Positions 8,140 through 63,660 of a stretch of DNA of 64,000 nt are shown here, one piece after another. A program made the translations under genes and the position numbers. Within the stretch, counting starts at the first letter, position 1. The number at the start of each line of letters is the position of its first letter. Origin of the DNA: an uncultured Anaerobiospirillum sp. Its GTDB lineage: Bacteria > Pseudomonadota > Gammaproteobacteria > Enterobacterales > Succinivibrionaceae. The notes under the pieces are model-generated. The model was given only the letters and a program-made list of their open reading frames with translations, was not told the DNA's origin and did not search any database. The stretch lies in contig CALXYZ010000001.1 of assembly GCA_944393075.1 (NCBI GenBank), positions 6,610-70,609 of the forward strand, in the 5' to 3' direction.

Positions 8140-8151
8140 CTTAAGCTCCTG

Positions 8152-8490: not shown

Positions 8491-8501
8491 GCACTTTACT
8501 C

Positions 8502-8777: not shown

Positions 8778-8796
8778 GTTTCTTCCTCACTAACGA

Positions 8797-9926: not shown

Positions 9927-10537
9927 TTGGTGATATCCTCCTCAACCTTCTTGAGAGCAGCGGCGGTAATTAATACCTTGTCAAAGCCGACTAAGTTCAC
10001 TGGGTTGAACGAAGCGGTACCTGGCTGGCAGACTTCAACCTTGTACAGGTTGCGAGCAGCTAAGAACAGGTTCTCGTCGAAAGCCTCGGTCACAATTAAG
10101 ACCTGCTTTAACTCAAGATCCTTGAGCTTGTTGACTAAGGTCTTGGTCTTGCAGTTTTCGAGCTTTAAGTCCTCAACGACGACTAAGCGGTCTTGACGGA
10201 CTAACTCAGAAAGGATGCTGCTCATAGCAGCACGGTACATCTTACGATTGACCTTCTGGCTCCAGTCTTGTGGCTTGGCAGCGAAGATGGTGCCACCAGC
10301 ACGCCATAATGGAGAACGGGTAGAACCAGCGCGAGCGCGGCCAGTACCCTTTTGGCGGAAAGGCTTCTTACCGCCACCGGAAACCTCAGAACGGGTCTTT
10401 TGCGCTTTAGTTCCAGCGCGAGCAGTACTCAGGTAAGCAACAACTACCTGATGTACCAGCGCCTCATTGAACTCGCGACCAAAGGCACTTTCGGACACCT
10501 CTAGTGGCTTCTCAGCGCCAATCATCTTTAATTCCAT
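9923..10537 (-). CDS. rplD: 50S ribosomal protein L4
   Basis: 204 aa; [30 protein letters not shown] matches L4. Confidence 0.97.
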
Positions 10538-10554
10538 GATTCCTTTACCTCAGG

Positions 10555-11193
10555 TTAAGCTTTAACACTTGGCCTTACGATGAGATCCCCGTTGTTAGCA
10601 CCAGGAACGGCACCCTTAACGAGGAGCAGGTTGCGCTCGGCATCGATACGAACGAGATCTAAGCACATAACAGTGACTTTCTCGCCACCCATGCGGCCAA
10701 CCATCTTCTTGCCCTTGAACACGCGACCTGGGGTCTGGTTTTGACCAGTGGAACCAGGAACACGGTGGGAGCGAGAGTTACCGTGAGTAAAGTCCTGAGT
10801 ACGGAAGTTGTAGCGCTTAACGGTACCAGCGGTGCCCTTACCCTTAGACTGGCCAGTGACATCCACCTTCTTCACGCCTTCTAAAGCGTCAACCTTAAGC
10901 TCAGAGCCGACTTGATAAGCTTCAAGCTCGGAAGGCTCTAAACGGAACTCCCATAAACCGCGACCAGCAGCGACACCGGTCTTAGCAAAATGACCGATTT
11001 CAGCCTTAGTCATGCGGGAAGCCTTACGCTCACCAGTGGTAACTTGGATTGCGCAGTAGCCGTCGTTCTCAAGATTCTTGATCTGAGTGACGCGGTTAGC
11101 TTCAACCTGAATGACGGTGACAGGAATCGACTTACCGTCCTCGTTGAATACGCGGGTCATGCCCAGCTTGCGGCCGATTAAACCGATAGACAT
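10555..11193 (-). CDS. rplC: 50S ribosomal protein L3
   Basis: 212 aa; [28 protein letters not shown] matches L3. Confidence 0.97.
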
Positions 11194-39899: not shown

Positions 39900-40355
39900 C
39901 TAATCTAAGACTTCAGGCAAATAGCGCAGGCAGATGTCGCTAACACCATGCTCCTTGATGTCGGTGAAAGGAGCGCTGACGGTGACGCGCATAATGGCAA
40001 CGGTCAGGCTTTCGCCCTCATGCTCGCCAGCGCGAGTCACTGAGTTTAAAGCCAGCTGCAAAATGGCTTGATCGGCTTCGCTCTCAGACTCAGACGAGCC
40101 CTCTTCCTCAACCTCAACTAAGCCGCCATCATCATCCCAAAACTCTGGAGTGAGCTCGGAGATAGCTACCTGTAGGTCAAAGCGGGTAGTGTTGAGGTGC
40201 TTTTGCACCATATGGCGCGAGGCAGTGGTTGGGAATTCAGTGGACTCAAAGCAACCAAATACAGTGTCGATTAAGAGGTCGCTTAAGTAATCAAAGTCCT
40301 CATCGGACATGGTGTCGATCAGGTTTTGGAGGGCATCGCCTTGAAGATAGGACAT
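39900..40355 (-). CDS. Hypothetical acidic protein (151 aa)
   Basis: Clean ORF with D/E-rich composition (EVEEEGSSESESEAD); no family recognised. Separated from rpoA-2 by a terminator. Confidence 0.5.
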   Translation of the reverse strand: MSYLQGDALQNLIDTMSDEDFDYLSDLLIDTVFGCFESTEFPTTASRHMVQKHLNTTRFDLQVAISELTPEFWDDDGGLVEVEEEGSSESESEADQAILQLALNSVTRAGEHEGESLTVAIMRVTVSAPFTDIKEHGVSDICLRYLPEVLD

Positions 40356-40411
40356 GGGCTGGGCTCTTTGTTCTGTTCTGTTTTATTTTTATGGTGGTGA
40401 AGCAGCAGATA

Positions 40412-40439
40412 CAAAAAAGGCCGCAATGCGGCCCTTTTG
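40412..40439. terminator. Bidirectional rho-independent terminator downstream of rpoA-2
   Basis: AAAAAA-GGCCGC-AAT-GCGGCC-CTTTT; a second hairpin GTGTGC...GCACAC follows at about 40441-40467. Confidence 0.7.
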
Positions 40440-40498: not shown

Positions 40499-41485
40499 TT
40501 AGTGGTTGATCTCGAAGTCTGATGGAGGCCAGTGCTCTAAACGCATGCCTAAGGACAGACCACGCTCGGCTAACACGTCCTTGATCTCGGTTAAGGACTT
40601 CTTGCCTAAGTTTGGAGTCTTGAGTAACTCGACTTCGGTGCGTTGCACTAAGTCGCCGATGTACTTGATACCCTCGGCCTTTAAGCAGTTGGCAGAACGC
40701 ACAGTGAGCTCTAAATCCTCGACTGGGCAGATTAACTTTGGATCGATCAGTGGACGGAAAGTAGTGTCCTCTGCTGGCTCGACCGAGTTTCTGATGTCGA
40801 TGAAAGAGTTTAATTGCTCAGCAAAGATGGTGGCAGCCATGGAAATAGCAACCTCTGGCTTGATGGTACCATTGGTCTCAATGGTTAAGTCCAGAGCTTC
40901 CATGTTGTTGGCTAAGGTGCGTGGACGCACAGCCACATTTAAAACTGGGCAGTAGGAGACGTCGATTAAGAGGCGGCCAATGAAACGATTGTCACCATTC
41001 TCGATGTATGGCTGGCTTTGAGCCTGAACATAACCACGACCACGAGATACGTGCAGAGTCATGTTGAGCTCAATCGAAGGATCGGTGATGTGGCAGAGCA
41101 CAAGATCAGGATTCTTGATCTCAACATTGCTTGGGCACTCGATGTCACCGGCGGTGACAGGGCCAATACCGCTCTTGCTGATGTGCAAAATAGGGTCAGT
41201 GGTGGACACGCCCTCACATTGCACTGCGACTTCCTTGAGGTTTAAGAGGATCAACAACACATCTTCTTGTACACCTTCAAGGGCGCTGTATTCGTGCACC
41301 GCACCAGCGATCTCTACCTCGGTAATGGCGTAGCCAGGAATGGAGGAGAGCATGATACGACGCAATGCGGTACCCATAATTTGGGCGTAGTTTGGCTCAA
41401 AAGGCTCAAGGGTCACACGGCTAACATTGCGTGCAATTTCCTCGACTTCCTTAATGTTTGGCCTGAGAAAATCAATTTGCTCCAA
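40499..41485 (-). CDS. rpoA: DNA-directed RNA polymerase alpha subunit, paralogue 2 (downstream of rplQ)
   Basis: 328 aa; [57 protein letters not shown], and a canonical C-terminal domain [67 protein letters not shown]. Confidence 0.93.
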
Positions 41486-41763
41486 GGTTCCACCCTCAAA
41501 TTGTTAGAAGTTAGGCATGGCCGCATGTCTGCTTGAAACTGAACAGACGACGCGTCATAGGTGACAAGAGAGCCCTGAAAAAAGCATGCCGCAAGCAGCT
41601 TTTTGTTTGATGGGGGCTGATCTTCGTGCTTAGAGTTGCTTGTCAGATTGCAGCAAACGGCACCGTATCTAAGATGCGGTGCCGTTTGGGATCGTAACGC
41701 CAGAGGCGTTGCGACGAAGCAAGCTAGAGGGAGAACCTTAAAGTTCTCCCCTAGCCATGCAAA

Positions 41764-42147
41764 TTAGTCTTCGCTGCTCTCAGATTGAGTGCGGTCAACT
41801 AACATGATGTAAGCCATAGGGGCATTGTCGCCTTGACGGAAGCCGCACTTTAAGATGCGGGTGTAACCGCCGTTACGCTCGGCGCTGACCTTGGCCACTT
41901 CGTCGAATAACTTCTTGACGGAGTCATCGCTACGTAAACGAGCGAAAGCTAAACGACGGTTAGCAACAGTGTCACCCTTCTTAGCTAAGGTGATTAAACG
42001 CTCAACAAAGCGACGTAATTCCTTGGCCTTTGGCAGGGTGGTCTTGATGACCTCATGCTCAATCAGAGCATTGGCTAAATTGCGGTACAGCGCTGCACGG
42101 TGTGCAGAGGTGCGACCTAAGTGGCGACCGCTTAAACGATGACGCAT
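41764..42147 (-). CDS. rplQ: 50S ribosomal protein L17
   Basis: 127 aa; [56 protein letters not shown] matches L17. Confidence 0.97.
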
Positions 42148-42190
42148 GGTGAAATCCTTCCTGTATAAACAGAGTGTGCAGAGACTTTAC

Positions 42191-43252
42191 TTACTTAGAA
42201 CGCTGTAAGTTCTGAGGAGGCCAGTTTGGCACACGCATGCCTAAAGATAAGCCGCGGGTAGCCAAAACGTCCTTGATTTCGGTTAAGGACTTCTTGCCTA
42301 AGTTTGGAGTCTTGAGTAACTCCACCTCAGTGCGTTGCACTAAATCGCCGATGTAGAAGATCTCCTCTGCCTTTAAGCAATTAGCAGAGCGCACGGTCAG
42401 CTCTAAGTCTTCAACTGGCTGCATTAACACCGGATCAGGAAGTGGAGGTGCAGCAGGGGTGCTGACACGCTCAGCAATGTCTTCCTTGTCGATGAGGTTG
42501 ATCATCTGATCGCAGATGAGATCAGAGCTTTGCATTAAGGCCTCATCAGGGCTGATGGTGCCATTAGTCTCAAGCTCGATGACCAAGCGATCTAAGTCAG
42601 TACGCTGCTCAACACGGGCAGACTCGACCTCATAGACGTAACGGGTGATAGGGCAGAATGCGGCATCAATTAAGATCTCGTCTTCTTCCTTAGCTGGTAA
42701 GTGCTTAGGAGAGGTTGATTCCACATAGCCATGACCGTAAACGACACGGAGATTCATCGACAGCGAAGCCTTAGCCCCCTTAAGAGTACAAATAATGTGC
42801 TCAGGGTTGATGATGCTCATGCCCTCATGGCAGGTGATATCACCGGCACGCACCACACCTTCACCTTGCTTGGAGAGCTTAAACCACACTGGGCCTTGGA
42901 CGTTGTGGTTTGAGGCAATGGCGACGGTCTTTAAGTTCATCACCACCTCAAACAACGACTCAACCATATCTTCCTTGATATCGTTGAGGCTCTTAACGCC
43001 CTCAATTTGGAAGGCATCAAAGGCATATCCAGGGAGGATCTTGAGTAAGATGTCATTTAAGGCAAAGCCGATGGTATTACCATAGCCGCGCTCAAGTGGC
43101 TCTAAAGCGATGCGCACATGGTTTGGGCCTAACTCGGTAAAACCAGTTGGCTTTGGTTTAAGCAATTCACAAACTGACACTATTTGATACCCCACAAGCG
43201 GTACACAAGCTGATAAAAGCGCTGACTCTGCAAGAGCTATATCACCCACCAC
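42191..43252 (-). CDS. rpoA: DNA-directed RNA polymerase alpha subunit, paralogue 1 (canonical operon position)
   Basis: Longest ORF starts at GTG 43252. There is no in-frame ATG in the first 90+ codons. GTG at 43180 ([11 protein letters not shown], which aligns with E. coli MQGSVTEFLKPR) would give about 329 aa. [35 protein letters not shown] and a canonical C-terminal domain are present. Confidence 0.9.
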
Positions 43253-43268
43253 GCCATTTTGGCATCTG

Positions 43269-43316
43269 CCTTAGATCTACCTTAGATCTACTTAGATCTA
43301 CTTAGATCTTCCTTAG
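43269..43316. repeat. 10/11-nt tandem repeat (C)CTTAGATCTA x4.5
   Basis: ccttagatcta ccttagatcta cttagatcta cttagatctt ccttag, in the rpsD-rpoA spacer. Confidence 0.95.
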
Positions 43317-43512
43317 AAAGCTCTAAGCAAGCCTGCGCCGCAGTAAAGAGGCGCAAGTGCTTGTCAGGAGAAAAGGCGGCAATGGCACGACAAAGCTTTC
43401 ACTTTCAGGAGGAACAGAAAGATTTGTCTTGGTATGAGCCTTATCTGCAAAGTCAGAACCGCAACTTGTGAAACAAGTGAAAAGAGGTTCAGGCTTTTGC
43501 CTGTAATGACTA

Positions 43513-44136
43513 CTACTTAGAGTAGAATTCGACGATGAGCTGTTCCTTGATATCGGAAGGAAGCTCAGAACGCTCAGGCTTGTTCTTGTAAGTACCCTTC
43601 ATGGCGCTGTGATCGACGTCGATCCAAGTTGGCTTAACAGCACGCTGGCCAGCTAAATCGATAGCGGCCTTGATACGGAGCTGCTTCTTAGCCTTCTCAC
43701 GCACAGCGATCTCATCGGATGGCTGAACCTGATAGGATGGGATGTTGATGACACGGCCATTGACAGTGATAGCCTTGTGGCTGACTAACTGACGGGACTC
43801 CATACGAGTGGAGCCGAAGCCCATGCGATAGACCACGTTGTCTAAGCGGCCCTCTAACAGCTGTAACAGGTTCTCACCGGTGTTACCTGGCATGTTAGAA
43901 GCCTTCTTGTAGTAGTTGTGGAACTGACGCTCGAGCACGCCGTAGATACGACGAACCTTTTGCTTCTCACGTAACTGAGAGCCGTAGTCGGATAAGCGAG
44001 CCTTGTTAGCGCCGTGCTGACCAGGTGCAGTGTCTAACTTGCACTTGGTGTCAATGGAACGCACACCAGACTTTAAAAATAAGTCCACGCCCTCGCGACG
44101 GCTTAACTTTAGAGCTGGCCCTGTATGTTTTGCCAT
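43513..44136 (-). CDS. rpsD: 30S ribosomal protein S4
   Basis: 207 aa; [33 protein letters not shown] matches S4. Confidence 0.97.
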
Positions 44137-44179
44137 TTATCTTTCTCCAATAAAAAAGCAGATACCAGATGAACCGTTT

Positions 44180-44668
44180 TTAGACGCGACGCTTCTTTGG
44201 CGGACGGCAACCGTTGTGTGGGATCGGAGTAACATCGGTGATGTTAGTGATCTTGTAGCCGATCGCATTTAAAGCGCGAATCGAGGACTCGCGACCTGGA
44301 CCTGGACCCTTGACTAAAACTTCAAGGTTCTTGACGCCATATTCCTTGGCAGCCTCGCCAGCACGCTCAGCAGCAACCTGAGCTGCATAAGGAGTGGACT
44401 TACGGGAGCCACGGAAGCCCGAACCACCAGCGGTAGCCCAAGAGAGGGTGTTACCTTGACGGTCAGAGATGGTGACAATGGTATTGTTGAAAGATGCGTG
44501 GATGTGAGCGACGCCATCAGCGATCTGCTTCTTGCCGCGCTTGCCGCCACGGGAACGTGGAGCAGAGGCAGACTTAGTAGCAGTAGCTGGAGCGGCAGCT
44601 GGGGCCTGAGCAGCAGGAGCTGCTGGAGTTGCTGGGGTTGCAGCTTGTTGGATTTCTTCAGCCATCAT
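44180..44668 (-). CDS. rpsK: 30S ribosomal protein S11 with Ala/Pro-rich N-terminal extension
   Basis: 162 aa; the core [28 protein letters not shown]... matches S11, preceded by [42 protein letters not shown]. Confidence 0.95.
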
Positions 44669-44676
44669 GTGCCTCC

Positions 44677-45033
44677 TTACTTCTTAATGCTCTTACGAGG
44701 ACCCTTACGGGTACGTGCATTAGTCTTGGTACGTTGGCCGCGAACAGGTAAGCCGCGACGGTGACGTAAGCCACGATAAGAACCAAGATCCATGAGGCGC
44801 TTGATGTTCATGGAAATTTCACGACGCAAGTCGCCTTCTACGGTGTACTTAGCAACCTCAGCACGAATCTTATCTAAGGTAGCCTCGTCGAGTTCCTTGA
44901 ACTTGGTTAACTCTTCAACCCCAGTAGCACGGCAGATGTCGCGTGCACGAGTAGGGCCGATGCCGTAGATGGATTGCAGAGCAATCACGGCGATCTTGTG
45001 ATCAGGCACATTGATGCCAGCGATACGGGCCAC
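44677..45033 (-). CDS. rpsM: 30S ribosomal protein S13
   Basis: GTG at 45033 preceded by AGGAGA gives (M)[29 protein letters not shown], the S13 N-terminus. The ORF track extends to 45078, but that extension has no S13 counterpart. Confidence 0.95.
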
Positions 45034-45361
45034 TATTGATCTCCTAGAAAAAGGTCGGTTTAACATATGCCATCGCAAAGCCCGTTAGGATACGCGACAG
45101 CAGTTATAGTGCACTTTGGCAAATTAAGCGGAACCTAAGGCCAAACAAGCGGCGACAAACAGCTAGCAAAAAACGCTGCTGCGCGGCACTTGGGCCTATC
45201 GTGCGATCATCAGGCCGCACGAAATCATCGCATGATCTGCTCACACGCTCACACTCAAAGAGTAAGTAGTGATGAAAGCGAGAAAACGGATGTCTGAAGC
45301 AAAGGTCTCTCTATCGCAAAAGAGTTTTGTTCAGAAAATTTAGGTAGGCTGTGATCTGCGT

Positions 45362-47350: not shown

Positions 47351-50300
47351 TCAACGTCGTTGTCGCCACGGCACTGATGCCTCTGTAGCGGCGCCATCGG
47401 CAGCATCGGCTGCGTACACGTCGACAGCCTTGCCGCCGTTAGCGTAGGCGGCGGCCATCATTTGGACTTGAGCCTGAGCTAACTTGTTCTGCTCTTCAAT
47501 GAAGTGCAGGATCTTGTCGGTGTCGATGTTGCGCACGGTGACATCCATCTGATCGAATGGGATCTCGATGTTGTTGTCAGCAAAAATACGCAGCGTCTCG
47601 GTGCTTAAGAAGTCATACACGACCTTACGCTTACCAATCTCGTTGACGTAGAGCTCGCACATGATGGTCACGGCGCTTGGATCTAAGCTCTTTACGTAGA
47701 TTGCTGGGCGGTTCTCACGGTTGAGGTCACGGCAGCGACGAATGATACCGCGCAGCAGATCCTTAGCCTTATTGATATCCGCACCGTAAGCAATACCCAC
47801 AGCAAACTCGATCTTGGTCACGGTACTAGACAGCGACCAGTTGGTCAGGGCTGAGGTGATGAATTGTTTGTTAGGAATCACCACTTCTTTGTTGTCAAAG
47901 GAGATGATCGTGGTAGCACGGATACGAATCTTGTTCACGGTACCGGAGATAGTGTCTAGAGTGACGATATCGCCCACACGCAGCTGGCGTTCAAACAAGA
48001 TGATGATACCGGACACGAAGTTAGCGAAGATCTCCTGCAAGCCAAAGCCTAAGCCCACCGAGAGGGCGGCAACTAACCACTGCAAGTTATCCCAACTAAT
48101 GCCTAACGAACCGGCCGCCAAGATCACAGCTAATGTCGTGATGGCATAGGAGGTAATGAGCTTGACAGTGTAGCCGGCACTCTTAGCATTGCTACCTGAG
48201 CGCAGCATAAAGAGGCGCTCAATAAGCATTGGTAAGTTGCGGTTTAAGACCACAGCCACCATGACAATGATGACGGCTAACAGCACATCGCCTAACGATA
48301 AGGCGGTGGTGACCATCTTGCCATCAACCTCAGTGACGCTCTCATAGAGGTAGATCTCGTCTAAGTAGCTGAGCACACCTGCAAGGTCGTTCCATTGCAG
48401 ATACATAAAGTAGACAAAGACGACCAAGATGATGGCGTTAAAGAGCTTGTAAGCACGGTTATTGACAAGCTCCAAGCGGAAAGAAGATCCACTGCTACCA
48501 CCTGAGCTGCCAGAACCAGATCCTAAGCCCGAACCAGATCCCGAGACGCCACTTCTCTTATTACCAGCAGCGCGGCTATTGCGCTCGCGGTTAGCCGCAG
48601 CAATGGCTCTGTTGTTCATGGCATTGCTGCTGATATTACTGGAGCTAGAGCCAACACCTTGCGCGGCCAAGACCTCTTGCAAGTGCATACGGCGTACTTT
48701 GTCCATGATCTTGATCTCGGCGACGTAGAGAGTTCGACGGAGGGTTTGCGACAAGATCATGTAGGCAAATCCGATGTACAGCGTGAAAGCCACACGGTTG
48801 AGCAGCTGAATCACAGTGTAGTAGTAACCCAAGCACAGCATGAGCGTGATGGTCAGAGGCGTACAAATACCTAAGACTGCTAGGGTACAGGTCATCATGG
48901 TTGGCTGATACTGCTTGAAAGTGCGCCACACGATGATGCCAGCATACACGGTTAAGTAGAGGAAGCCTAAGATCATCAAGAGATAGCCCAAGCTATCGTT
49001 TGGAATCTTGGTTGGCTCTAACTCACGCATGTTGGCGATGGTCAGCATTGGAATACTGACGTACCAGATCTGATCGATAACCTGACGGCTACGGGCAATC
49101 TTGCCTGGAGCAAAGGAGAAGTAGCGCTGTACTACCGAGTTTGGCTCCAAGATGTGGCGCATATAGAGGAAGCAGCCCACATGCAGCGTCAGGTAATAAG
49201 TCAGCATCAGCTGATCTTTGAAATTATCCAAGGTGATAAAGATAAAGATTGAGCCGATGAAAGTGATGACCACCACTGATGGGATGATCATAAACAGGTG
49301 CAAGAACAGCGCACGCACTGTCAGCGTGTAACCATCAGTAGGCTTATCAAGATGCATTGCCAAGCGATTGGCGGTCTTTTTCAGACTTGGGTTGACCTTA
49401 GTGAAGATCAAACCCAAGATCGCTAATGGCAGGAAGATCTTGAGGTAGTTGACGGTGTTTTCGTGGGTGAACAGGTCGTTGCTCAGATACGACTTGATGT
49501 CGTCTACCTGCAAGAGCAAACGTGGCAGCGTGGTTGAGAAGAAGTTAAGACCAATACCGTTGTTGCTGGTAAGCCAGAACAAATGGTCATTGATCATGGT
49601 GCGCACACGTGAGCTCGCCTCGGTCAGATCACCATACTTAGCACGCAAGTCGGTAGCAACGGTCAGGCTATCAGACATAGCGTTGTAGAGCTGATCGTAA
49701 AGGTCGCGGCGTTGGCGCATGATCTGGACGAGCGTCTCGGAGAAAGGAGCTAACTCCGGATCGTCGCGCACCATGTCGTTGACATAGCTCTGTACATCAA
49801 AGATCTGCTCACGGAAGTTGCGTAAATCAAACATCCACAAATTGAGATTTGGGATGAGCTCATCGAGGTTAAAAGAGATGTTGATTTGTGGCAGCTCACC
49901 CTGCTGACGGTTAAGCATGCGCGATAAGATCACACTACCACTAAGATCAGTAAGTTGCTCTTGCAGATTCTGCTCAATTTGGCGGGTGGTGGCTAAAGCG
50001 GCGGTAACCTCCTGCACCTCACGCGTCATTTGCGCATTGTCGTTGAGCAACACTTCGATATGGCGAGCGATTTCTTTGTTGGTATCTGACTCACGCTTAA
50101 CCTGAGGTAAGAACTGGCCACTGACAGCTGCAGCATCAGAGGTCACACCGTCCACAGTAGACGAATCGAGGTTAGCGCTGCCACTCTCACTAGAGCTCCT
50201 AGTAGCCGTGCTCACCCCCAAATTGAAGTCAGTATCGGTAACAGTCAGCTGATTGCTCAGAAGCTCGTCTTGGGCTGCGCGTACCTTTTCTAAGTACTTG

Positions 50301-51460
50301 GAGAGGTAATCCTTATGGAGGTTGTAGATATGCAGTTTGTAGTTAGCGACATCTTGGAACACCGAGATCGAACGCAGCTCAGTTTGCAAAATCTCGTTGT
50401 GCTTTTGCTGCACTGCGATCTCAAACTGCAGCACCATAGTCTCATCACGGAGGGTGTTAGGGCTGTTGAGCAGAGTGTTGATCTTAGAGATACGGGCGTT
50501 GTTAGCCGAGATCAGGTTTTGCGCACGCGATGGTAAGGTCTGGAGCGAGTTGTAGGCCGAAGTGGCATCAGACAACTCGTTTTGCACCTCCAATAACTGG
50601 GCATTGAGCTGATCTAACAAGGCATTGATGCCATCTAAGTTCAGAGGGGTTTCGCTACTTTCGCCACCAGCGCCAATCTCACCACCTGCACTATCCTCAC
50701 TACCTGCACCTGCTGACGCGGCATCTTCACTAACATCATCGGTAGTAATAATCTCTGGTGGCTCTTGGGTATAGGTTTCATTGGCAGCAGCTAAGGCCTG
50801 CTCTAACTCCACAATCAGGTCTTGTGCTTGCTCTTGCTTGCTCTTGATACGGCGCTCTTCTTGGAGCAGATTCTCGTAGCGCGTCACGAGGCTCATACCA
50901 AGCTCAATAGCCTGTAAGGAGCGCTCTTTATCAGCATCAGACAGTTCTTTGTTGGCCTTAATAGCCTCAGAACGGGCATTGAGCTGCTTGCGGTTTAAAA
51001 TCCACTCACTTTGGACACTTTCATCAGGATCTTTGTTGTCTAAAAGTACGGCACTACTATCTTGAGTCAATGAGCCCACATCAGTGACGATATCGGATAG
51101 CACTTCTAAAGGAAGTGATGAACCTCCAGTACCAGTACCAGTGGCGGAGTTGGCAGCATCAGCAGCAGCCTCTCTTTCAGCAGGAGCCGCACCACCAGTA
51201 ATAGAGGTTTCGATAGCCGCGGCAATATCAGCCTCAGCATAAGATTGCTGCCAGGTACCGCTCACAGCCACGACTGCAAGGCACATAAACACGGCCAGCA
51301 GCCATGATAAAGACCGAGAACTAATCGATGATGTAGACGCAGAAGCAACCGCAGTAGCAGTCGTAGACGCAGCCACTGCGGCGTTAGCGCCAACGGCCGT
51401 CTGCGCTGGTAAAGCGCAGGAGGCTAGTGCAGCTTGATGAGCAAAGATAGTCTTGAACAT
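47351..51460 (-). CDS. MscS-family mechanosensitive channel, MscK/MscM-like (large periplasmic coiled-coil N-terminus)
   Basis: ORF is open to 51643. The ATG at 51460 gives MFKTIFAHQAALASCALPAQ (signal-like). Long Q/E/L-rich coiled-coil region, about 10 TM helices, then the MscS core EIFANFVSGIIILFERQLRVGDIVTLDTISGTVNKIRIRATTIISFDNKEVVIPNKQFITSALTNWS. Confidence 0.85.
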   Translation of the reverse strand: MFKTIFAHQAALASCALPAQTAVGANAAVAASTTATAVASASTSSISSRSLSWLLAVFMCLAVVAVSGTWQQSYAEADIAAAIETSITGGAAPAEREAAADAANSATGTGTGGSSLPLEVLSDIVTDVGSLTQDSSAVLLDNKDPDESVQSEWILNRKQLNARSEAIKANKELSDADKERSLQAIELGMSLVTRYENLLQEERRIKSKQEQAQDLIVELEQALAAANETYTQEPPEIITTDDVSEDAASAGAGSEDSAGGEIGAGGESSETPLNLDGINALLDQLNAQLLEVQNELSDATSAYNSLQTLPSRAQNLISANNARISKINTLLNSPNTLRDETMVLQFEIAVQQKHNEILQTELRSISVFQDVANYKLHIYNLHKDYLSKYLEKVRAAQDELLSNQLTVTDTDFNLGVSTATRSSSESGSANLDSSTVDGVTSDAAAVSGQFLPQVKRESDTNKEIARHIEVLLNDNAQMTREVQEVTAALATTRQIEQNLQEQLTDLSGSVILSRMLNRQQGELPQINISFNLDELIPNLNLWMFDLRNFREQIFDVQSYVNDMVRDDPELAPFSETLVQIMRQRRDLYDQLYNAMSDSLTVATDLRAKYGDLTEASSRVRTMINDHLFWLTSNNGIGLNFFSTTLPRLLLQVDDIKSYLSNDLFTHENTVNYLKIFLPLAILGLIFTKVNPSLKKTANRLAMHLDKPTDGYTLTVRALFLHLFMIIPSVVVITFIGSIFIFITLDNFKDQLMLTYYLTLHVGCFLYMRHILEPNSVVQRYFSFAPGKIARSRQVIDQIWYVSIPMLTIANMRELEPTKIPNDSLGYLLMILGFLYLTVYAGIIVWRTFKQYQPTMMTCTLAVLGICTPLTITLMLCLGYYYTVIQLLNRVAFTLYIGFAYMILSQTLRRTLYVAEIKIMDKVRRMHLQEVLAAQGVGSSSSNISSNAMNNRAIAAANRERNSRAAGNKRSGVSGSGSGLGSGSGSSGGSSGSSFRLELVNNRAYKLFNAIILVVFVYFMYLQWNDLAGVLSYLDEIYLYESVTEVDGKMVTTALSLGDVLLAVIIVMVAVVLNRNLPMLIERLFMLRSGSNAKSAGYTVKLITSYAITTLAVILAAGSLGISWDNLQWLVAALSVGLGFGLQEIFANFVSGIIILFERQLRVGDIVTLDTISGTVNKIRIRATTIISFDNKEVVIPNKQFITSALTNWSLSSTVTKIEFAVGIAYGADINKAKDLLRGIIRRCRDLNRENRPAIYVKSLDPSAVTIMCELYVNEIGKRKVVYDFLSTETLRIFADNNIEIPFDQMDVTVRNIDTDKILHFIEEQNKLAQAQVQMMAAAYANGGKAVDVYAADAADGAATEASVPWRQRR

Positions 51461-51536
51461 GGTGGGCAAGTCCCTACTTTGTTTGATCCTGAGCGAGCCA
51501 TAGCAGATATGCAGTATTAAGTACCACAAGCACAGC

Positions 51537-51582
51537 AAGCTCGAAGCTCGAAGCGCGAAGCGCAGAAGCACGAAAGCGAGCT
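51537..51582. repeat. Degenerate 7-nt tandem repeat AAGC(T/G)CG x6
   Basis: aagctcg aagctcg aagcgcg aagcgca gaagcac gaaagcg, upstream of the probable MscK-like start. Confidence 0.85.
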
Positions 51583-52249
51583 GTGGTGCGCTAACCGTAC
51601 CAAAGATGGCTTGTTTGCCATTATCGAAGCCTAAAAGAAACAAAGCAACTCACAGTGCTTGGATATGCAAGCTAGCTCATATGGCAATGGTCACGAGCCT
51701 TGATGGTAGGCGAATACTGGTCGCTTAGAGATATTGGTGCTACAACAGTGCAGTGGATTTTTTACCTACATATTTGATCAAATTGCGATTTTTCGTGCGG
51801 CAAAAGCCCGCGCAGCTGCATCAGAGGCCCAAAATTGTGGTATTATGTCGCGCAAAGTGAGCTTGAGGCCTCGTTTAAGGCTTAAAGATCACGTTTCTTA
51901 TGAGCAGCACACAAGATCACATCGTAGGTGATCTTTGATCCTGCCCTTCCTTAAGAGCCAAGCGTATTGCCTAAGCAAATGAGCTTAGCGTAGCCTCGCG
52001 TTTTGGTTTTCTCTTTTTCCTACAAGTTTAGATCCTCTGGGTTCTAAATCATGCGTGACCATGATGCATGTACCCCATGCAAAGCAAGCTATGCATGCAC
52101 TGTATGCACTGCTGCTTGATGTGATAAGGCATGAAGTCTTGCGGTGTGGTTGCATAAAAGCACAAATAAACAAGAAAAGGGAAAAGAGGAAAGTTGCCAA
52201 ACGCTTTGTTACCCGCGATACCCGAGGTCTTTAGGGTTCTAAAAGACAT

Positions 52250-52881: not shown

Positions 52882-54141
52882 ATGAACCTTAACGAACTTA
52901 AAAACACTCCGGTCGCACAACTGGTTGCTATGTGCGAGCAAGCAGGTATTGAAAACACTGCCCGTTTAGGTAAAAAAGAGATCATCTTCAACCTCTTAAA
53001 GCTGTGTGCCCGTACAGGTGAGGATATCTTCGGTGAAGGCGTCATCGAAATCTTACCTGATGGCTTTGGCTTCTTACGTAGTGCCGACAGCTCTTACTTA
53101 GCAGGTCCAGATGATATCTACGTATCTCCAAGCCAAGTACGTCGCTTCAACTTACGTACTGGCGACTCGATCTCCGGTAAGATTCGCCCACCAAAGGAAG
53201 GTGAGCGTTACTTTGCCCTCCTGAAAGTCGATGCGGTCAACTTTGAGCAGCCAGAGAAGGCCCGCAACAAGATCTTATTTGAAAACCTCACCCCTATCTT
53301 CCCAGACGAGCGCATGCGCCTTGAGATCGGCAACGGCTCCAAAGAAGATATCACCTCGCGCGTGATCGACCTTACTGCTCCTATTGGTAAGGGCCAGCGT
53401 GCACTCATCGTCGCCCCTCCAAAGGCTGGTAAGACCGTTCTTCTGCAAAACGTCGCCCATTCCATCTCCGTCAACAATCCTGAGTGCGTATTAATAGTGC
53501 TCCTCATCGACGAACGTCCTGAGGAAGTGACCGAAATGCGCCGTATGGTCAATGGTGAAGTGGTGGCTTCGACCTTCGATGAGCCAGCAGCCCGTCACGT
53601 GCAGGTAGCCGAGATGGTAATCGAAAAGGCTAAGCGCTTAGTTGAGCACAAGCGTGACGTCGTGATCTTCATGGACTCGATTACCCGTTTAGCCCGTGCC
53701 TACAACACCGTGATCCCTGCTTCTGGCAAGGTCTTAACCGGTGGTGTGGACGCCAACGCTCTGCAACGTCCAAAGCGTCTCTTTGGTGCTGCCCGTAACG
53801 TTGAGGAAGGTGGCTCTCTGACCATTATTGGTACTGCCTTAATCGACACTGGCTCCAAGATGGACGAAGTGATCTACGAAGAGTTCAAGGGCACTGGTAA
53901 CATGGAGCTGCACTTATCCCGTAAGATCGCTGACAAGCGCGTCTACCCAGCAATTGACGTGACTCGTTCTGGTACTCGTCGTGAGGAGCTCTTAACCTCC
54001 GCAGACGAGCTGCAAAAGATGTGGATCTTACGTAAGTTCCTCCACCCAATGGGTGAAATTGAGGCTATGGAGTTCCTCTTAGACAAGCTTTCCATGACCA
54101 AGACCAACGACGAGTTCTTCGAGGCCATGAAGCGCTCCTAA
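52882..54141 (+). CDS. rho: Transcription termination factor Rho
   Basis: 419 aa; [32 protein letters not shown], Walker [10 protein letters not shown]-terminal [17 protein letters not shown]. Confidence 0.97.
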
Positions 54142-54416: not shown

Positions 54417-54621
54417 CAAGCACAAAGTCACAATTGTTGCTAGCAAACAGTTTTGTCATAACAGCGCCTGCACCCTAGAGCCTGTGCTTTGCTGAGAGCT
54501 TTTCGCTTACTGATAGCAAAGCCAAAAATGCATTGATCCATTTCAAAGATATAGAACGACGACCGGTTTTCGGCAGCAAATCGTGCTAAGTTGAAAGACG
54601 ATGTTGCGTCAGGAGGTCGAA

Positions 54622-57600
54622 ATGTTCTTACAGCGTGCCGAGATTCAGAACTTCCGAGGAATACGTCATTTAACTGTTGATTTTGAGCGTGATACCACAG
54701 TATTGATTGGTGAAAACGCTTGGGGTAAATCGTCTTTACTGTACGCTTTGTTTGCGATCTTAGGTAAAGGTGAGAATCATCTGTGCACCTTCACCCCAGA
54801 CGATCTCTACATTCCAATTCGCCTCGATTCAGACCTTGAAGGCATTGGCGATGAAGCTAGTGATAGCGATGGAGAGGAGCTCAGTAAGGATAAGGCCCAA
54901 ACATCAGCCACATCTCAAGATGCTGCTCCAAAAGAGCAAGGCACCTCCACTACTGCTGCCCCTACAGTTTCTACTGCCTCCACTGTCTCTACAGCCGAGA
55001 CCGCTTCAGCATCATACGCTTCTGCTGCTACTGCTACTGCTACTGCTACCACTACTACTAATGCTGCTACTACAGAGACAACAGAGACAACAGACACCAC
55101 CAAAGGCGTCACCGTAGAGGGTGTGCTAGAGCCTAGTGCCTCTGAGCAAGAGGCTATTGAGCGCGGCGCCCGTGCTTTAGCTGCCGCTCAGTGCTGTCCA
55201 CCTGCACAGCAGCTACGTCAACTTGAATTCTTAAAGCCGATCAAGGTCATTACCACCCCTGACTATCAGCGCCGTTACTACAGCGTGCCTAATGCTAACG
55301 GTATGGGTCAGGTGATGCACATTGTCGACGTGCCTGTAAGTGAACTCAACGATGAAGAAAAAGCTGCTGCTTTTCCATCGCGTGCTCGCCACAACAAGCA
55401 TAAGAACAAGCACAAGCATGGCAAGCAACCAGCTCATACAGCTCATACAGCTCATACAGCCCATACAGCACAGGTACATCAAACACCTTTTAAAGGTCAG
55501 TCGGTCTCAGTGTCGCTGCGTCCACGTCAGTACACTGAAGCTCTGACCAACTTCCTTGCTGGTACTAGTGCGGCCCCTACCCATCTTGCTAATAGCAAAG
55601 CCCTTAAGAACACAGCAGCCAATGAGATTGCTGCTGCTTTAGCTGACAGCGCGGTTGAGGAGTCCTCAATTTCCAAGTCTTCACAGGCTTCAGCTGCTCT
55701 GCGTGGTATGTCTACCAAAGACATCATGAATGCCGTTGGTGAGTCCTTAGTCGGCAAAAGCGCCAAAGACATCAAGAAGCAAGCGCAGTCCGCTGTCACT
55801 GCCGCAGCAGAGATCACTGCTATCGGTACAAGTAAGGCTAATAGCAACGGCATTGGCAACGGCAATGGTAATGGTAATGGTAATGGCAAGCCTAAGCTCC
55901 ATCATGCAGCGCTCATGCTTGAATCCTTGCGACTGGCTCAACAAGCTGAAGCTCTTTATGAGCAAGGCTTACCTCTTTACTACAATCCATCACGCAGTGA
56001 GCTGATGGAGCGTGCGCAAAACGTCTTAAACGAGAAGGAAGGCTTAGAGCAAGAAGCTGTCGATAGCGCACGTGATGATATGGCCTTCTATGAGAGCGAC
56101 GTCTATAAGGACAAGGCTGAGAGTATCGTTATCGATCTCATTTTCTGTGAGAGTGATTATGGTGTCTTAAACTCGGTACCACGCTTCTCTGGTTTAAAGA
56201 ACGGTAGCTACTTAGGCGAGGATGGACTTTATCGCATCCACTATCGTGTCAGCGCTAAGATGCAGCTGATTGCCTCAAATGAAGCCCCTAATGACAAGAC
56301 TGCCGTTACGGCAGCCACTGCCACTGCTACTGGAGCTAGTGCTGGTGCTAATGCGGGTGCCGATACCGATGCTGACTATGATTCGACTTGCGTTCAAGGT
56401 GAGCACTTTGTGACTTGCCATGAGATCCTTGATGCTAAGGAGCAGCCAATCGAAGATAGCATCGCCAAGCGCATCATTCGTGAGCTCATCATCCTCAACC
56501 CATTACTGCGTATTCGTGACCGTCGAATGCTCAAGCCTCAGATGTATGAGGTAGTAGAGCAAATCGATCACCCAAAGGATGCCGCAAAGGCCCAAGCCAC
56601 AGACCAAGCTAATCTATCAGACACGGCCGTAGATATTGAAGTTGTCGCTACCCCAAATGCCAGTGCTAGTTCTAGTGCTAGTGCTAGTGCCAGCGCTGCT
56701 ACTACCGACAATACAGCTAATACAGCCAATGATGAAGGTGAAGAAGAGCTTGATTTAAAGACCATCTCGCACTTCTTTGCGGATCTGACCTCTGATGAGG
56801 ACTGGACTTCTAAGCAGATCAAAGACGGTATTGATGTGCTCAATACCATTGCCTCGAAGTACCTCGTCAACTACCAGAGTAACAACCTGACGACTACCTA
56901 CCACGTAGATCTTGATGCCATTCAAAGCCGTACCGCACGCGATATTGTGACGCACCCAGTGTCGATCAGTACCCTCAACTCACTTAAGAACGCTCTGACT
57001 GACTCCAAGCCATCAAGAGCTAGGTTCTTGTTGTCGCTGCTTGCTGGTGCCTTCTTGATGTCTAAGGGACAGCGAGAGATCGATGAACAGTCCCGACCAA
57101 TTTTGATTTTGGAAGACTTGGAGAGCCGCTTCCACCCTACTCTGCTGCTTAATCTGTGGGCTATCTTGCAGCTTCTCCCTATCCAAAAGGTGGTGACGAC
57201 CAACTCAGCGCAACTGCTGAGTGCTATGCCAATGAGCAAGATCCGCCGTCTGTGTAAGCAGTACTACGATGTGCGCTGCTACAGCATTCGTGATCGTGCC
57301 TTTAGCCGTGACGACGCCCGTAAGATTGCCTTCCACATCCGCATGAACAGACCAAACACCTTGTTCGCTCGCTGCTGGTTGTTAGTTGAAGGCGAAACCG
57401 AGGTTTGGGTCTTAAACGAAATTGCTGATGTTTTAGGCTTCAACTTAGCTTGCAGTGGTGTGGCTTTAATTGAATTTGCGCAATGCGGTCTCAATCCTCT
57501 GATTAAGCTAGCTAAGCAAATGGGTATCTCCTACCACGTCCTCACCGACGGTGATGACGCAGGACGCCACTATGCGCAAACAGTACGTGACTTCGTGGGC

Positions 57601-58770
57601 AATACCAATCTGCCAGATCACTTGAGCGTTATGCCTCATGTCGATATCGAGCACTATCTCTACACTTCAGGTTTTGCTGACGTGTACCAACGTGCGGCTA
57701 ACATCGCCTTGAAGAATCAGCCAGTGGTCTCTAAGAACAAGCACCAAAAGAGTCCACCACCATTAGATAGCATTGGTAATGAAGACGGCTCTAAGGACAA
57801 GAGTGCAGAAAAGAAATTTGATCGCGTCATTGATGTCGATGTGGCGAGCATCACAGACCTTGCTGATCAGCCAACTAAGTCCAAGAAGGAGAAGAACAAA
57901 GAGAAGGGTCAGGACAAGAATAAGGGTGGCAGCAAGCAAGCTGTGTTAAAGAACCACAGCTTAGATAGCGTCATCAAGAGCGTGCTGCACTACAACTTGG
58001 GCAAGAACGTCCAAGAGCTCTTAAAAGCGGTGAACCGTGGTCGTCTCCAGGGTCAGAGCAAAAAGGCGCAGATCATTGATATCTCACAGCTCTCTAAAGG
58101 TGACGTCTCGGCTTTCTACCACTACGTCCACAATCTCATTATGGAGATGCCACGCCCAAGCCATAACCTGACTAAGCGCCAGAGCCGTATCCTCAATATC
58201 TTAAAGAGCGAGCGTGCCTTACTCTTAGATCAGGTCAACCGCAATGAGCAGCGTCTCAACAAGCAAAATGCGGCCAATGCCGCTGCAGCTGCTGCTGAGA
58301 CTATGGCTAACCTCAACAAGAACAAGGCCAAAGCTGATAAGGACAAGGCCAGCGTCAACGCCAGCACCAGCGCAAGCACTAGCGCCTTTTCCAGAAACGG
58401 CAATAACAACAGCAATGGCAATGGTAGTGGTAGTGGTGGTAAGTCCAAGGTGGAAAAGGCCGATAAGATTGCCAAGATCGATACTAAGAACGCCTCTTCA
58501 GATGACAGCAAAGCAGTAGAGACCGAGCGCCTCAATGGCAAGACCACTAATGCCGCTTTTGGTGCTTGGTCAGATGCTGAGCTTAGTAAGAAGGGAATGT
58601 CGGTCAAGAAGGTGATCGAGGCGGCGATCCACAAGAACACCAAGCCAGGGATGGCGATCTTGGTTAGTGAGGCTATGCATCAGCGTGGCCCTGACTCCGT
58701 ACCGCTGCTCTTTAAGACCATGTTCCGTAAGATCAGACGCTTAGCGCAAAACGAGTTCGGCCTAGAGTAG
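54622..58770 (+). CDS. ybjD: OLD-family ATP-dependent endonuclease homologue (YbjD-like), greatly expanded by insertions
   Basis: The ATG at 54622 is preceded by AGGAGG (54611-54616). N-terminal MFLQRAEIQNFRGIRHLTV...VLIGENAWGKSSLLYAL (ABC/AAA Walker A). C-terminal FHIRMNRPNTLFARCWLLVEGETEVWVLNEIA...IEFAQCGLNPLIKLAKQMGISYHVLTDGDDAGRHY (Toprim). Final KPGMAILVSEAMHQRGPDSVPLLFKTMFRKI. These blocks match my memory of E. coli YbjD (about 550 aa); this ORF is about 1380 aa. Confidence 0.85.
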   Translation: MFLQRAEIQNFRGIRHLTVDFERDTTVLIGENAWGKSSLLYALFAILGKGENHLCTFTPDDLYIPIRLDSDLEGIGDEASDSDGEELSKDKAQTSATSQDAAPKEQGTSTTAAPTVSTASTVSTAETASASYASAATATATATTTTNAATTETTETTDTTKGVTVEGVLEPSASEQEAIERGARALAAAQCCPPAQQLRQLEFLKPIKVITTPDYQRRYYSVPNANGMGQVMHIVDVPVSELNDEEKAAAFPSRARHNKHKNKHKHGKQPAHTAHTAHTAHTAQVHQTPFKGQSVSVSLRPRQYTEALTNFLAGTSAAPTHLANSKALKNTAANEIAAALADSAVEESSISKSSQASAALRGMSTKDIMNAVGESLVGKSAKDIKKQAQSAVTAAAEITAIGTSKANSNGIGNGNGNGNGNGKPKLHHAALMLESLRLAQQAEALYEQGLPLYYNPSRSELMERAQNVLNEKEGLEQEAVDSARDDMAFYESDVYKDKAESIVIDLIFCESDYGVLNSVPRFSGLKNGSYLGEDGLYRIHYRVSAKMQLIASNEAPNDKTAVTAATATATGASAGANAGADTDADYDSTCVQGEHFVTCHEILDAKEQPIEDSIAKRIIRELIILNPLLRIRDRRMLKPQMYEVVEQIDHPKDAAKAQATDQANLSDTAVDIEVVATPNASASSSASASASAATTDNTANTANDEGEEELDLKTISHFFADLTSDEDWTSKQIKDGIDVLNTIASKYLVNYQSNNLTTTYHVDLDAIQSRTARDIVTHPVSISTLNSLKNALTDSKPSRARFLLSLLAGAFLMSKGQREIDEQSRPILILEDLESRFHPTLLLNLWAILQLLPIQKVVTTNSAQLLSAMPMSKIRRLCKQYYDVRCYSIRDRAFSRDDARKIAFHIRMNRPNTLFARCWLLVEGETEVWVLNEIADVLGFNLACSGVALIEFAQCGLNPLIKLAKQMGISYHVLTDGDDAGRHYAQTVRDFVGNTNLPDHLSVMPHVDIEHYLYTSGFADVYQRAANIALKNQPVVSKNKHQKSPPPLDSIGNEDGSKDKSAEKKFDRVIDVDVASITDLADQPTKSKKEKNKEKGQDKNKGGSKQAVLKNHSLDSVIKSVLHYNLGKNVQELLKAVNRGRLQGQSKKAQIIDISQLSKGDVSAFYHYVHNLIMEMPRPSHNLTKRQSRILNILKSERALLLDQVNRNEQRLNKQNAANAAAAAAETMANLNKNKAKADKDKASVNASTSASTSAFSRNGNNNSNGNGSGSGGKSKVEKADKIAKIDTKNASSDDSKAVETERLNGKTTNAAFGAWSDAELSKKGMSVKKVIEAAIHKNTKPGMAILVSEAMHQRGPDSVPLLFKTMFRKIRRLAQNEFGLE

Positions 58771-63300: not shown

Positions 63301-63660
63301 AAGCAGCACGGCTACGTCACCACCTTGCTGGGCAACCGCGTCTTTATCAAGGGCATCAATAGTACCGGCATGGGCCAGCGCACAGCCGAGCGTGCGGCAA
63401 TTAATGCCCCAATGCAGGGTAGTGCTGCCGACATCATTAAAAAGGCCATGGTTGAGGTCAATGCCTATATCAAGACTCTGCCGAAGGACAGCGTCCACAT
63501 GACGCTGCAGGTGCATGACGAACTGGTCTTTGAGGTACGCGATGACCTCGTCGATGAATTCTGCACCAAGGTCAAGGAAATCATGGAGCACGTAGTCTCG
63601 ATCTCCGTGCCACTTGAAGTCGGTATCGGCATTGGCGTCAACTGGGCTGAAGCCCACTAG
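60385..63660 (+). CDS. polA: DNA polymerase I with about 170-aa low-complexity insertion in the 5'-nuclease/Klenow linker
   Basis: GTG start after [24 protein letters not shown] (5'-3' exonuclease). C-terminal [53 protein letters not shown] (family A polymerase motifs A/B/C). Confidence 0.96.

Follow-up and report, generated by a model that had tools for sequence, protein, structure and literature searches.

We analysed a 64,000-nucleotide (nt) stretch of DNA (the window) from an uncultured Anaerobiospirillum sp. (assembly GCA_944393075.1, contig CALXYZ010000001.1, positions 6,610 to 70,609 of the forward strand), which carries two genes for RNA polymerase's alpha subunit (rpoA). On the minus strand, the order of features is an Alpha_RBS leader, rpsM, rpsK, rpsD, rpoA copy 1, rplQ, a spacer, rpoA copy 2 and a terminator (Table 1). 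In terms of the alpha operon arrangement rpsM-rpsK-rpsD-rpoA-rplQ behind Alpha_RBS, copy 1 occupies the exact slot of rpoA and copy 2 follows directly after rplQ. The list of open reading frames (ORFs) has rplQ alone between the two full-length rpoA frames and rpsD upstream of copy 1. Both copies contain all three Pfam alpha domains, RNA_pol_L (PF01193), RNA_pol_A_bac (PF01000) and RNA_pol_A_CTD (PF03118), with scores well over the gathering scores, and both match the solved E. coli alpha over nearly their full length (365 bits for copy 2 and 331 bits for copy 1; E = 1e-98 to 1e-108). The ORFs, domains and E. coli matches together bear out a preliminary description of this DNA, in which two intact rpoA genes were seen to flank rplQ on the minus strand. 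Overall the two proteins are 42% identical (BLASTP), mostly owing to a nearly identical C-terminal domain (CTD); their N-terminal domains (NTDs) are only ~30% identical.

Copy 1 starts with a GTG codon at 43180 (43178-43180 of the window); a conserved GTGGGGTA motif precedes this start, and 58 of 59 related species keep it. Given this conservation, the coding sequence is 42191-43180 (329 amino acids), and the start at 43252 that had been reported before is merely that of the longest ORF. The TTG start of copy 2 (41483-41485) and its GAGGGTG Shine-Dalgarno sequence are present in all species inspected. It may be, speculatively, that these weak start codons (GTG for copy 1 and TTG for copy 2) tune each protomer to one copy per enzyme. 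With the four ribosomal-protein genes of the operon as reference, copy 1 has a codon adaptation index of 0.64 and copy 2 one of 0.65, and the two genes rank right after the ribosomal-protein genes among the 32 ORFs of the window.

Table 1. Features of the rpoA locus, with positions in the window. Residue ranges marked E. coli follow the E. coli alpha subunit; identities are to the canonical gammaproteobacterial consensus.
Feature	Position	Strand	Evidence
Alpha-operon leader (Alpha_RBS, S4 translational operator), overlapping the start of rpsM	45001..45112	-	Rfam RF00140, 59.3 bits (gathering score 38), E = 7e-11
rpsM (ribosomal protein S13)	44677..45033	-	ORF; 118-amino-acid Ribosomal_S13 gene call on identical contigs
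rpsK (ribosomal protein S11)	44180..44668	-	ORF; Ribosomal_S11 on identical contigs
rpsD (ribosomal protein S4)	43513..44136	-	Pfam Ribosomal_S4 and S4 domain
rpoA copy 1, 329 amino acids, GTG start, canonical rpsD-rpoA-rplQ slot; putative beta'-associated alphaII	42191..43180	-	three alpha Pfam domains
Copy 1 codons N42-D43 in place of E. coli R44-R45, the beta-binding determinant	43052..43057	-	alignment
Copy 1 decayed block, E. coli 55-86, including beta footprint 65-75	42929..43024	-	identity 0.22 for 65-75
Copy 1 site of three-residue deletion, DERPIGRLL loop	42662..42694	-	alignment
Copy 1 retained loop, E. coli 188-209, beta' footprint and K200 site	42560..42625	-	identity 0.77 (186-194) and 0.76 (195-210)
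Copy 1 alpha CTD core	42233..42415	-	Pfam RNA_pol_A_CTD; R265, N268, C269, G296, K298, S299 kept
44-nt identical tract in copy 1 CTD	42279..42322	-	direct comparison with 40587-40630
rplQ (ribosomal protein L17)	41764..42147	-	Pfam Ribosomal_L17, E = 9e-38
Structured spacer between rplQ and copy 2, several hairpins, A-tract/hairpin/U-tract at 41578-41604	41486..41763	-	RNA fold
rpoA copy 2, 328 amino acids, TTG start behind GAGGGTGG; putative beta-associated alphaI	40499..41485	-	three alpha Pfam domains
Copy 2 remodelled segment, E. coli 28-38, including dimer-interface residues 35 and 38	41378..41410	-	identity 0.39
Copy 2 retained block ...LLNLK, E. coli 40-86, R42-R43 = E. coli R44-R45	41234..41374	-	identity 0.66-0.76 over residues 39-90
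Copy 2 degenerate, shortened loop with four-residue deletion, beta'-footprint region	40886..40936	-	identity 0.06 for 186-194
Copy 2 alpha CTD core	40541..40723	-	Pfam RNA_pol_A_CTD; DNA-binding and activator-contact residues kept
44-nt identical tract in copy 2 CTD	40587..40630	-	direct comparison with 42279-42322
Intrinsic terminator 3' of copy 2, GGGCCGCATTGCGGCC then TTTTTTGT	40411..40434	-	sequence; same palindrome flagged on the plus strand by scan

A survey of relatives, which the preliminary description had suggested as a way of dating the duplication, was carried out on one genome per GTDB species with a profile scan for the copy 2 NTD followed by tblastn, and returned ~60 Succinivibrionaceae species. 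The arrangement rpsD-rpoA(copy 1 type)-rplQ-rpoA(copy 2 type) was found in all of the ~60 species representatives with enough flanking sequence. Cultured strains with both copies include A. succiniciproducens DSM 6400, S. dextrinosolvens DSM 3072 and Succinatimonas hippei YIT 12066. Outgroups caught by the same patterns, among them Oceanococcus and a Coxiellaceae metagenome-assembled genome (MAG), carry a single rpoA. The exact copy 2 protein, with the same neighbours, occurs on at least 23 independent metagenome contigs; because the arrangement recurs on these contigs and in ~60 species-representative genomes, it is not an assembly artefact. The homologues form two separate families, each restricted to Succinivibrionaceae (Anaerobiospirillum, Succinivibrio and Succinatimonas), and the identity of copy 2 homologues drops from ~68% directly to 58%, the latter being ordinary single-copy gammaproteobacterial RpoA. 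Among the species representatives, Candidatus Anaerobiospirillum pullistercoris is the nearest, at 86% and 89% identity. The survey covered three of the five named genera of the family by name; Ruminobacter and Succinimonas did not turn up by name. The presence of both copies in species of all three genera therefore suggests that the duplication predates their divergence, and it appears to be older than the split of at least three of the five named genera.

Selection on both copies is strongly purifying. Nei-Gojobori estimates for pairs of orthologues gave ratios of nonsynonymous to synonymous divergence (dN/dS) of 0.05-0.16 for the copy 1 NTD, 0.04-0.10 for the copy 2 NTD and 0-0.09 for both CTDs. 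Decay of the second copy in relatives, which had been named beforehand as a sign against a functional pair, was not seen among the surveyed species: dN/dS is far below 1, and a single MAG has a damaged copy. In this MAG (RUG260, labelled uncultured Succinatimonas sp.; locus L061, ~5970-6040) an internal deletion or frameshift removes approximately codons 15-37 of copy 2. It is the sole damaged copy among the ~60 genomes and may be an assembly error.

To describe how the two families differ, we aligned 57 species pairs with 24 canonical sequences and, segment by segment in E. coli numbering, calculated how closely each copy agrees with the canonical gammaproteobacterial consensus (fraction identical). 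Copy 1 is closer to the consensus over residues 28-38 (0.89, against 0.39 for copy 2), 186-194 (0.77 against 0.06) and 195-210, the beta' footprint (0.76 against 0.46). Copy 2 is closer over residues 39-55 (0.72, against 0.53 for copy 1), 56-64 (0.71 against 0.39), 65-75, a beta footprint (0.66 against 0.22), 76-90 (0.76 against 0.45) and 211-235 (0.60 against 0.28). The CTDs are equally close to the consensus (0.86 for copy 1 and 0.87 for copy 2). Conservation within each family is low at residues 65-75 of copy 1 (0.56) and 186-194 of copy 2 (0.60), marking where constraint was relaxed. Residues 28-38 of copy 2 are conserved at 0.86 within the family, so that their remodelling is a new constraint rather than decay.

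The protection footprint of beta on E. coli alpha spans residues 30-55 and 65-75 and that of beta' spans residues 175-185 and 195-210; alpha with an insertion at 180 or 200 fails to bind beta', and the R45A substitution abolishes alpha2-beta formation (PMC3294249). R44 and R45 (E. coli numbering) are present in all 57 copy 2 sequences and in none of the 57 copy 1 sequences, in which position 44 is S or N and position 45 is D, G, T or S. Because it lacks Arg45, which is needed for beta binding, copy 1 should not be able to work as a canonical homodimer. Copy 1 keeps the LEPLERGFG segment and has R or K at position 200 in every species, a position that is variable in copy 2, beside its four-residue deletion. 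Purifying selection has also preserved the K86, dimerisation helices and full NTD fold of copy 1. Copy 2 likewise keeps K86, and its changes at positions 173 and 180 are conservative only. The divergence between the copies is reciprocal and conserved, and corresponds to known DETERMINANTS. The preliminary description had proposed from the two genes of the window that each had lost a different set of conserved assembly-domain blocks, among them the R45 equivalent in copy 1, and that this should be checked against a broad set of RpoA sequences. Every block that it quoted is present in the copies, the reciprocal pattern is family-wide, and the retained blocks match the published beta and beta' footprints and mutants. 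Both genes are thus intact, conserved, selectively constrained and reciprocally diverged, with codons as in highly expressed genes.

The dimer interface has also changed asymmetrically. Residues 35, 38 and 39 of one alpha monomer pack on residues 46, 50 and 227 of the other (Kannan et al., via PMC3294249), and a homodimer has two such clusters. The cluster formed by residues 35, 38 and 39 of copy 1 with residues 46, 50 and 227 of copy 2 is ancestral in all 57 species (F/Y-T-L/I with I-S-Q). The mirror cluster, formed by residues 35, 38 and 39 of copy 2 with residues 46, 50 and 227 of copy 1, is changed on both sides in all 57 (typically Y-I-V with I/V-T-S/H/C); at positions 35 and 38 copy 2 has departed from the ancestral residue in essentially every species, and at position 39 in most. 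Residue 39 of copy 2 covaries with residue 227 of copy 1, V or I occurring with a small residue and L or M with H or Q, with a single exception in the 57 species and no fewer than two independent transitions. The ancestral halves of the interface are thus complementary between the paralogues and not within either of them. This asymmetry, together with the 39/227 covariation, is the strongest sign of cross-pairing that the sequences offer, and from it we infer that the paralogues probably pair with each other.

Both copies retain the intact DNA- and activator-binding CTD noted in the preliminary description. Residues R265, N268, C269, G296, K298, S299, E261 and 285-290 are kept in both families across the 57 species, the exceptions being minor changes at positions 255, 258 and 318, and the near identity of the two CTDs was confirmed by BLASTP. 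Family-wide signatures distinguish them, KAEGIKY and LAER in copy 2 and KAE[ES]I[FI]Y and LA[TQ]R in copy 1. By direct comparison, the identical nucleotide tract shared by the two CTDs is 44 nt long, not 43 nt (40588-40630 and 42280-42322) as had been reported. This run is longer than predicted by a null model of gene-wide codon usage (P about 2e-4), and P is about 0.004 against a site-specific null drawn from orthologues. However, identical runs of 35, 41 and 44 nt are also shared by copy 1 and copy 2 taken from different species, the synonymous divergence between paralogous CTDs is 0.96-1.7, and CTD sequences group by orthologue, so gene conversion was rejected as the cause of the tract. It is also unneeded, because runs just as long are seen when paralogues are compared across species. 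The 15 codons of the tract are nearly fixed across orthologues of both copies. The earlier suggestion had been gene conversion or strong constraint on the CTD, and it is the latter that stands: the tract appears to be explained by strong constraint reaching codon choice, and a very short conversion patch is possible but unnecessary.

We consider it likely that, after an ancient rpoA duplication and subfunctionalisation of the NTD, the two copies form an oriented heterodimer in which copy 2 is alphaI, bound to beta, and copy 1 is alphaII, bound to beta'. The roles are assigned according to which beta and beta' determinants each copy retains. In this scheme, rpoA would have been duplicated before the common ancestor of Anaerobiospirillum, Succinivibrio and Succinatimonas, and the N-terminal assembly domain would then have been subfunctionalised. 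Copy 2, which keeps the beta determinants (R44/R45, helix H1 and the 55-90 block) and lost the beta'-footprint loop, would have become alphaI. Copy 1, which keeps the beta'-footprint loop and LEPLERGFG, would be able to serve only as alphaII because it lost R45 and the beta-footprint block. The RNA polymerase core would assemble on the oriented copy 2-copy 1 heterodimer, and the binding of UP elements and activators would be unchanged because both flexibly tethered CTDs remain canonical. An alphaI/alphaII heterodimer had already been proposed in the preliminary description, and the proposal survives all of the computational tests (the 57-species pattern, selection, codon usage, footprints and interface). 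We infer physical heterodimerisation, its orientation, the requirement for both proteins and the qualifier 'obligate' from these patterns.

Several points weigh against this heterodimer. The survey covered loci rather than whole genomes and leaves formal room for a third, canonical rpoA elsewhere. LEPLERGFG lies within the beta footprint 30-55 yet is kept by the beta'-side copy 1, which makes the mapping of footprints to copies imperfect. Finally, K86 is unchanged in copy 2 and the changes at 173 and 180 are conservative; beta' binding has been tied to these positions as well, so that copy 2 on its own might form a homodimer with residual activity, in the way that Francisella alpha1 does in vitro.

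This last point also favours a different reading, in which the cell holds a mixed population of enzymes: copy 2 homodimers would form the housekeeping core and copy 1 would be a facultative alphaII of a specialised polymerase, the composition being regulated. Copy 2 is indeed the more canonical protein by its match to E. coli alpha (365 vs 331 bits), it retains R45 in addition to K86 and the conservative residues at 173 and 180, and the R45-bearing alpha1 of Francisella has low activity on its own in vitro (PMC3294249). Copy 2 also lies here behind hairpins and a terminator-like element and may form its own transcription unit. The folding energy of the 281-nt spacer between rplQ and copy 2 is -107 kcal/mol (z = -6.7 vs shuffled sequences); in most relatives this spacer is ~100 nt long, and in some Anaerobiospirillum species it is 470-540 nt. 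A scan for a promoter of copy 2 was uninformative, giving two promoter-like sites where 4.8 are expected by chance. Against a mixed population, all 57 species have a copy 2 whose 186-200 loop is deleted and degenerate, and the within-family conservation of only 0.60 in this loop points to a lost function rather than a maintained beta' contact. With residues 35 and 38 (and mostly 39) of copy 2 non-ancestral, a homodimer of copy 2 would have no ancestral half-interface. Moreover, copy 1 sits in the canonical slot, has equally biased codons and is never lost. We therefore regard a mixed population as unlikely.

The lack of a residue essential for beta binding could also mean that copy 1 acts outside RNA polymerase, as a free CTD factor or as a decoy on UP elements or activators. 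Retention of the beta'-footprint loop, K86, dimerisation helices and NTD fold, as seen in copy 1, is not what one would expect of such a factor, and copy 2, with its beta'-side loop deleted, would need to fill both positions in the enzyme. The two genes might instead be equivalent duplicates of the type found in Chloroflexus and Streptomyces avermitilis, given that rpoA duplications without subfunctionalisation exist in other bacteria, but this is contradicted by the reciprocal loss of assembly determinants. We give very little credence to either version. An artefact or decay, whether an assembly chimera, a recent duplicate held similar by gene conversion or a pseudogene in the making, has a negligible probability and is already refuted by the comparative data. 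It could draw on the 44-nt tract, longer than gene-wide codon usage predicts (P about 2e-4), and on the damaged copy 2 of the MAG at L061. However, the same arrangement is found in isolates and in dozens of independent assemblies, the NTDs are only ~30% identical and the paralogous CTDs have a synonymous divergence of ~1-1.7, orthologues cluster apart in the CTD, runs of 35-44 nt are also found across species, and dN/dS is far below 1 in both copies.

The proposed Succinivibrionaceae heterodimer resembles alpha1 and alpha2 of Francisella (Charity 2007; PMC3294249; PDB 6WMP chains A and B), which are likewise two full-length, divergent paralogues fixed throughout a lineage. In both cases one copy has the R45 equivalent and lacks the K200-region determinant, and in the other the ARV..RTDLDKL stretch is kept and R45 is replaced, by Q in Francisella and by D or G here. 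Both copies also lie on long branches in both cases, and the deep phylogeny is poorly resolved, a problem that the 2011 study shared (PMC3294249). For this comparison, 1.8 billion representative proteins were searched for alphas lacking R45; the Francisella alpha2 sequence was taken from the PDB alignment, and alpha1 was represented by a Thiotrichales alpha1-type protein rather than F. tularensis alpha1 itself. Among the proteins found, P0286 is Francisellaceae alpha2 (586 bits to PDB 6WMP chain B). In Thiotrichales bacterium 19X7-9 / 19S3-7, P0248 and P0285 are alpha2-type (LRQT) and alpha1-type (RR, short loop deletion) alphas, the same genomes encoding one protein of each type. The occurrence of both types in Thiotrichales genomes suggests that the Francisella-style split may extend beyond the genus Francisella. 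The alpha2 types resemble copy 1 in having no R45, in retaining ARV..RTDLDKL and in a deletion in the DERPIG loop, which in Francisella and Thiotrichales alpha2 is larger than in copy 1. The Thiotrichales alpha1 type resembles copy 2: RR is retained, and the loop that is shortened in copy 2 has a deletion of similar length (2+2 residues as aligned).

The two systems differ in other respects. The Francisella genes are dispersed, whereas the Succinivibrionaceae copies are adjacent with rplQ alone between them, and the slot is reversed, the R45-less copy being the one in the ribosomal operon here. The CTDs are nearly identical to each other and canonical in Succinivibrionaceae, whereas those of Thiotrichales alpha1-type and alpha2-type proteins are ~62-66% identical. 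The heterodimer is proven in Francisella and predicted in Succinivibrionaceae. Both Succinivibrionaceae copies match E. coli alpha with 331-365 bits and either Francisella alpha with 147-217 bits, and their CTDs are 84-88% identical to E. coli and 59-72% identical to the Francisella lineage. In a neighbour-joining tree each paralogue clade has 100% bootstrap support, the grouping of copy 1 with copy 2 has 12% and that of copy 2 with Thiotrichales alpha1 has 62%, the deep nodes lacking resolution. The 62% grouping most likely reflects convergence or long-branch attraction. On the basis of the bit scores and CTD identities, and not of the tree, the Succinivibrionaceae pair appears to have originated independently of the Francisella duplication, and the similarity between the two appears to be convergent, with parallel deletions. 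We lean towards the view that Succinivibrionaceae use an obligate oriented alphaI/alphaII heterodimer that arose independently of Francisella by tandem duplication in the alpha operon, with convergent changes and with only the assembly domain partitioned.

The search for R45-less alphas brought up further proteins. P0405 (L087 8001-8987 and L088 6485-7471) is a full-length alpha that lacks R44/R45 (ITSV for LRRI) and keeps the CRVEQRTNLDEL loop. Its gene stands alone beside dksA, an autotransporter gene and an integrase gene, and may encode another Francisella-like stand-alone alphaII. Other R45-less representatives are P0270, P0309, P0333, P0339 and P0378. Several proteins look as if they were built from tandem alpha-CTD repeats: P0241 (1031 amino acids) has 12 separate alpha-CTD-like stretches, and P0278, P0326, P0331 and P0383, several of 480-650 amino acids, have 4-5.

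Copy 1 can be seen, by analogy, as the natural equivalent of an engineered alpha. An R45A alpha reportedly takes only the beta'-side position, according to primary papers on oriented heterodimers, and in E. coli an R45-less alpha is said to be incorporated only at the beta' position when paired with an R45-bearing partner. Oriented E. coli heterodimers have been built from one R45A and one wild-type alpha (PMC3294249), and there, as would be the case here, the R45-less alpha is unable to nucleate beta binding. Unlike the engineered pair, the natural pair shows many more co-adapted changes, at the interface, in two deletions and in a decayed 55-86 block; sequence has been lost from copy 2 as well, and the dependence between the copies is therefore probably mutual. 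In archaeal Rpo3/Rpo11 and eukaryotic Rpb3/Rpb11 (AC40/AC19), too, a duplicated alpha-like scaffold is split into a beta-side subunit, with the R45-equivalent surface, and a beta'-side subunit, an asymmetric module of the Rpo3/Rpo11 type being described in a 2026 review (PMC13374769). Unlike in those systems, both Succinivibrionaceae copies have ~328 amino acids with domain 2 and a CTD, neither partner is reduced, and there are no assembly subunits of the Rpb10/12 type. The event is also recent compared with Rpb3/Rpb11 and confined to one bacterial family; the likeness is an analogy only. Duplicates of rpoA without subfunctionalisation are known from Chloroflexus spp., Streptomyces avermitilis, Psychromonas ingrahamii and Leptospira borgpetersenii (PMC3294249). 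Those copies are identical or lack drastic changes in dimerisation and in beta/beta' contacts, whereas the changes in Succinivibrionaceae are drastic, reciprocal and conserved.

Other features lie around the operon and elsewhere in the window. The spacer between rpsD and rpoA copy 1 is ~330 nt long in the window, versus ~50-60 nt only in related species, and contains a tandem repeat with a 10-11-nt unit, CTTAGATCTA, in 4-5 copies at 43264-43317. Directly past the terminator of copy 2 lies an acidic ORF of 151 amino acids (39900-40355, minus strand) without a Pfam match, weak homologues of which (24-44% identity) are found 3' of copy 2, mostly adjacent to it, in several Anaerobiospirillum genomes. 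The ribosomal-protein cluster is broken up: the S10-operon genes (L3, L4, L2 and a long S3 of 271 amino acids; 7324-11193) are ~30 kb from the alpha operon (40499-45112). Two 271-amino-acid ORFs with high codon adaptation at 7.3-9.6 kb were considered as a second tandem duplication, which was ruled out since they are L2 and S3 and are unrelated. The genes before the alpha operon are unrelated ones, a 407-amino-acid ORF without a Pfam match and a 1430-amino-acid MscK-like channel (47351-51643). An unusually long OLD-family nuclease-like protein of 1389 amino acids (54601-58770, plus strand) has an N-terminal AAA/SMC-like ATPase, DUF2813 and an OLD-like TOPRIM domain; rho (52882-54141) is adjacent to its gene and polA (60385-63660) lies downstream.

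Bacterial RNA polymerase is taught as alpha2-beta-beta'-omega, with identical alphas. A literature search found no report linking Succinivibrionaceae or Anaerobiospirillum to an rpoA duplication or to the alpha subunit, and the family-wide trait is apparently unreported. The principle of a heterodimeric alpha is itself established and its recurrence was predicted by Mukhamedyarov et al. in 2011 (PMC3294249), yet the two-alpha enzyme of Francisella was still termed 'unique' in a paper of September 2026. The gene rpoA is used as a single-copy marker, yet it is double in Succinivibrionaceae, and automatic annotation names both genes alike. A second independent case would make the splitting of alpha a repeatable evolutionary outcome rather than a curiosity. 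Since the same deletions and losses are seen in two lineages, comparing them should reveal which alpha surfaces are needed only beside beta or only beside beta'; the Francisella and Succinivibrionaceae parallels amount to a natural mutagenesis experiment, and if the heterodimer is real they would define the minimal position-specific determinants of alpha. The pair would then also be a bacterial replay of the first step towards the Rpb3/Rpb11 split and a clean model for its start. The family is abundant in the guts of animals and humans, including the rumen, and the trait is fixed in no fewer than three of its five named genera.

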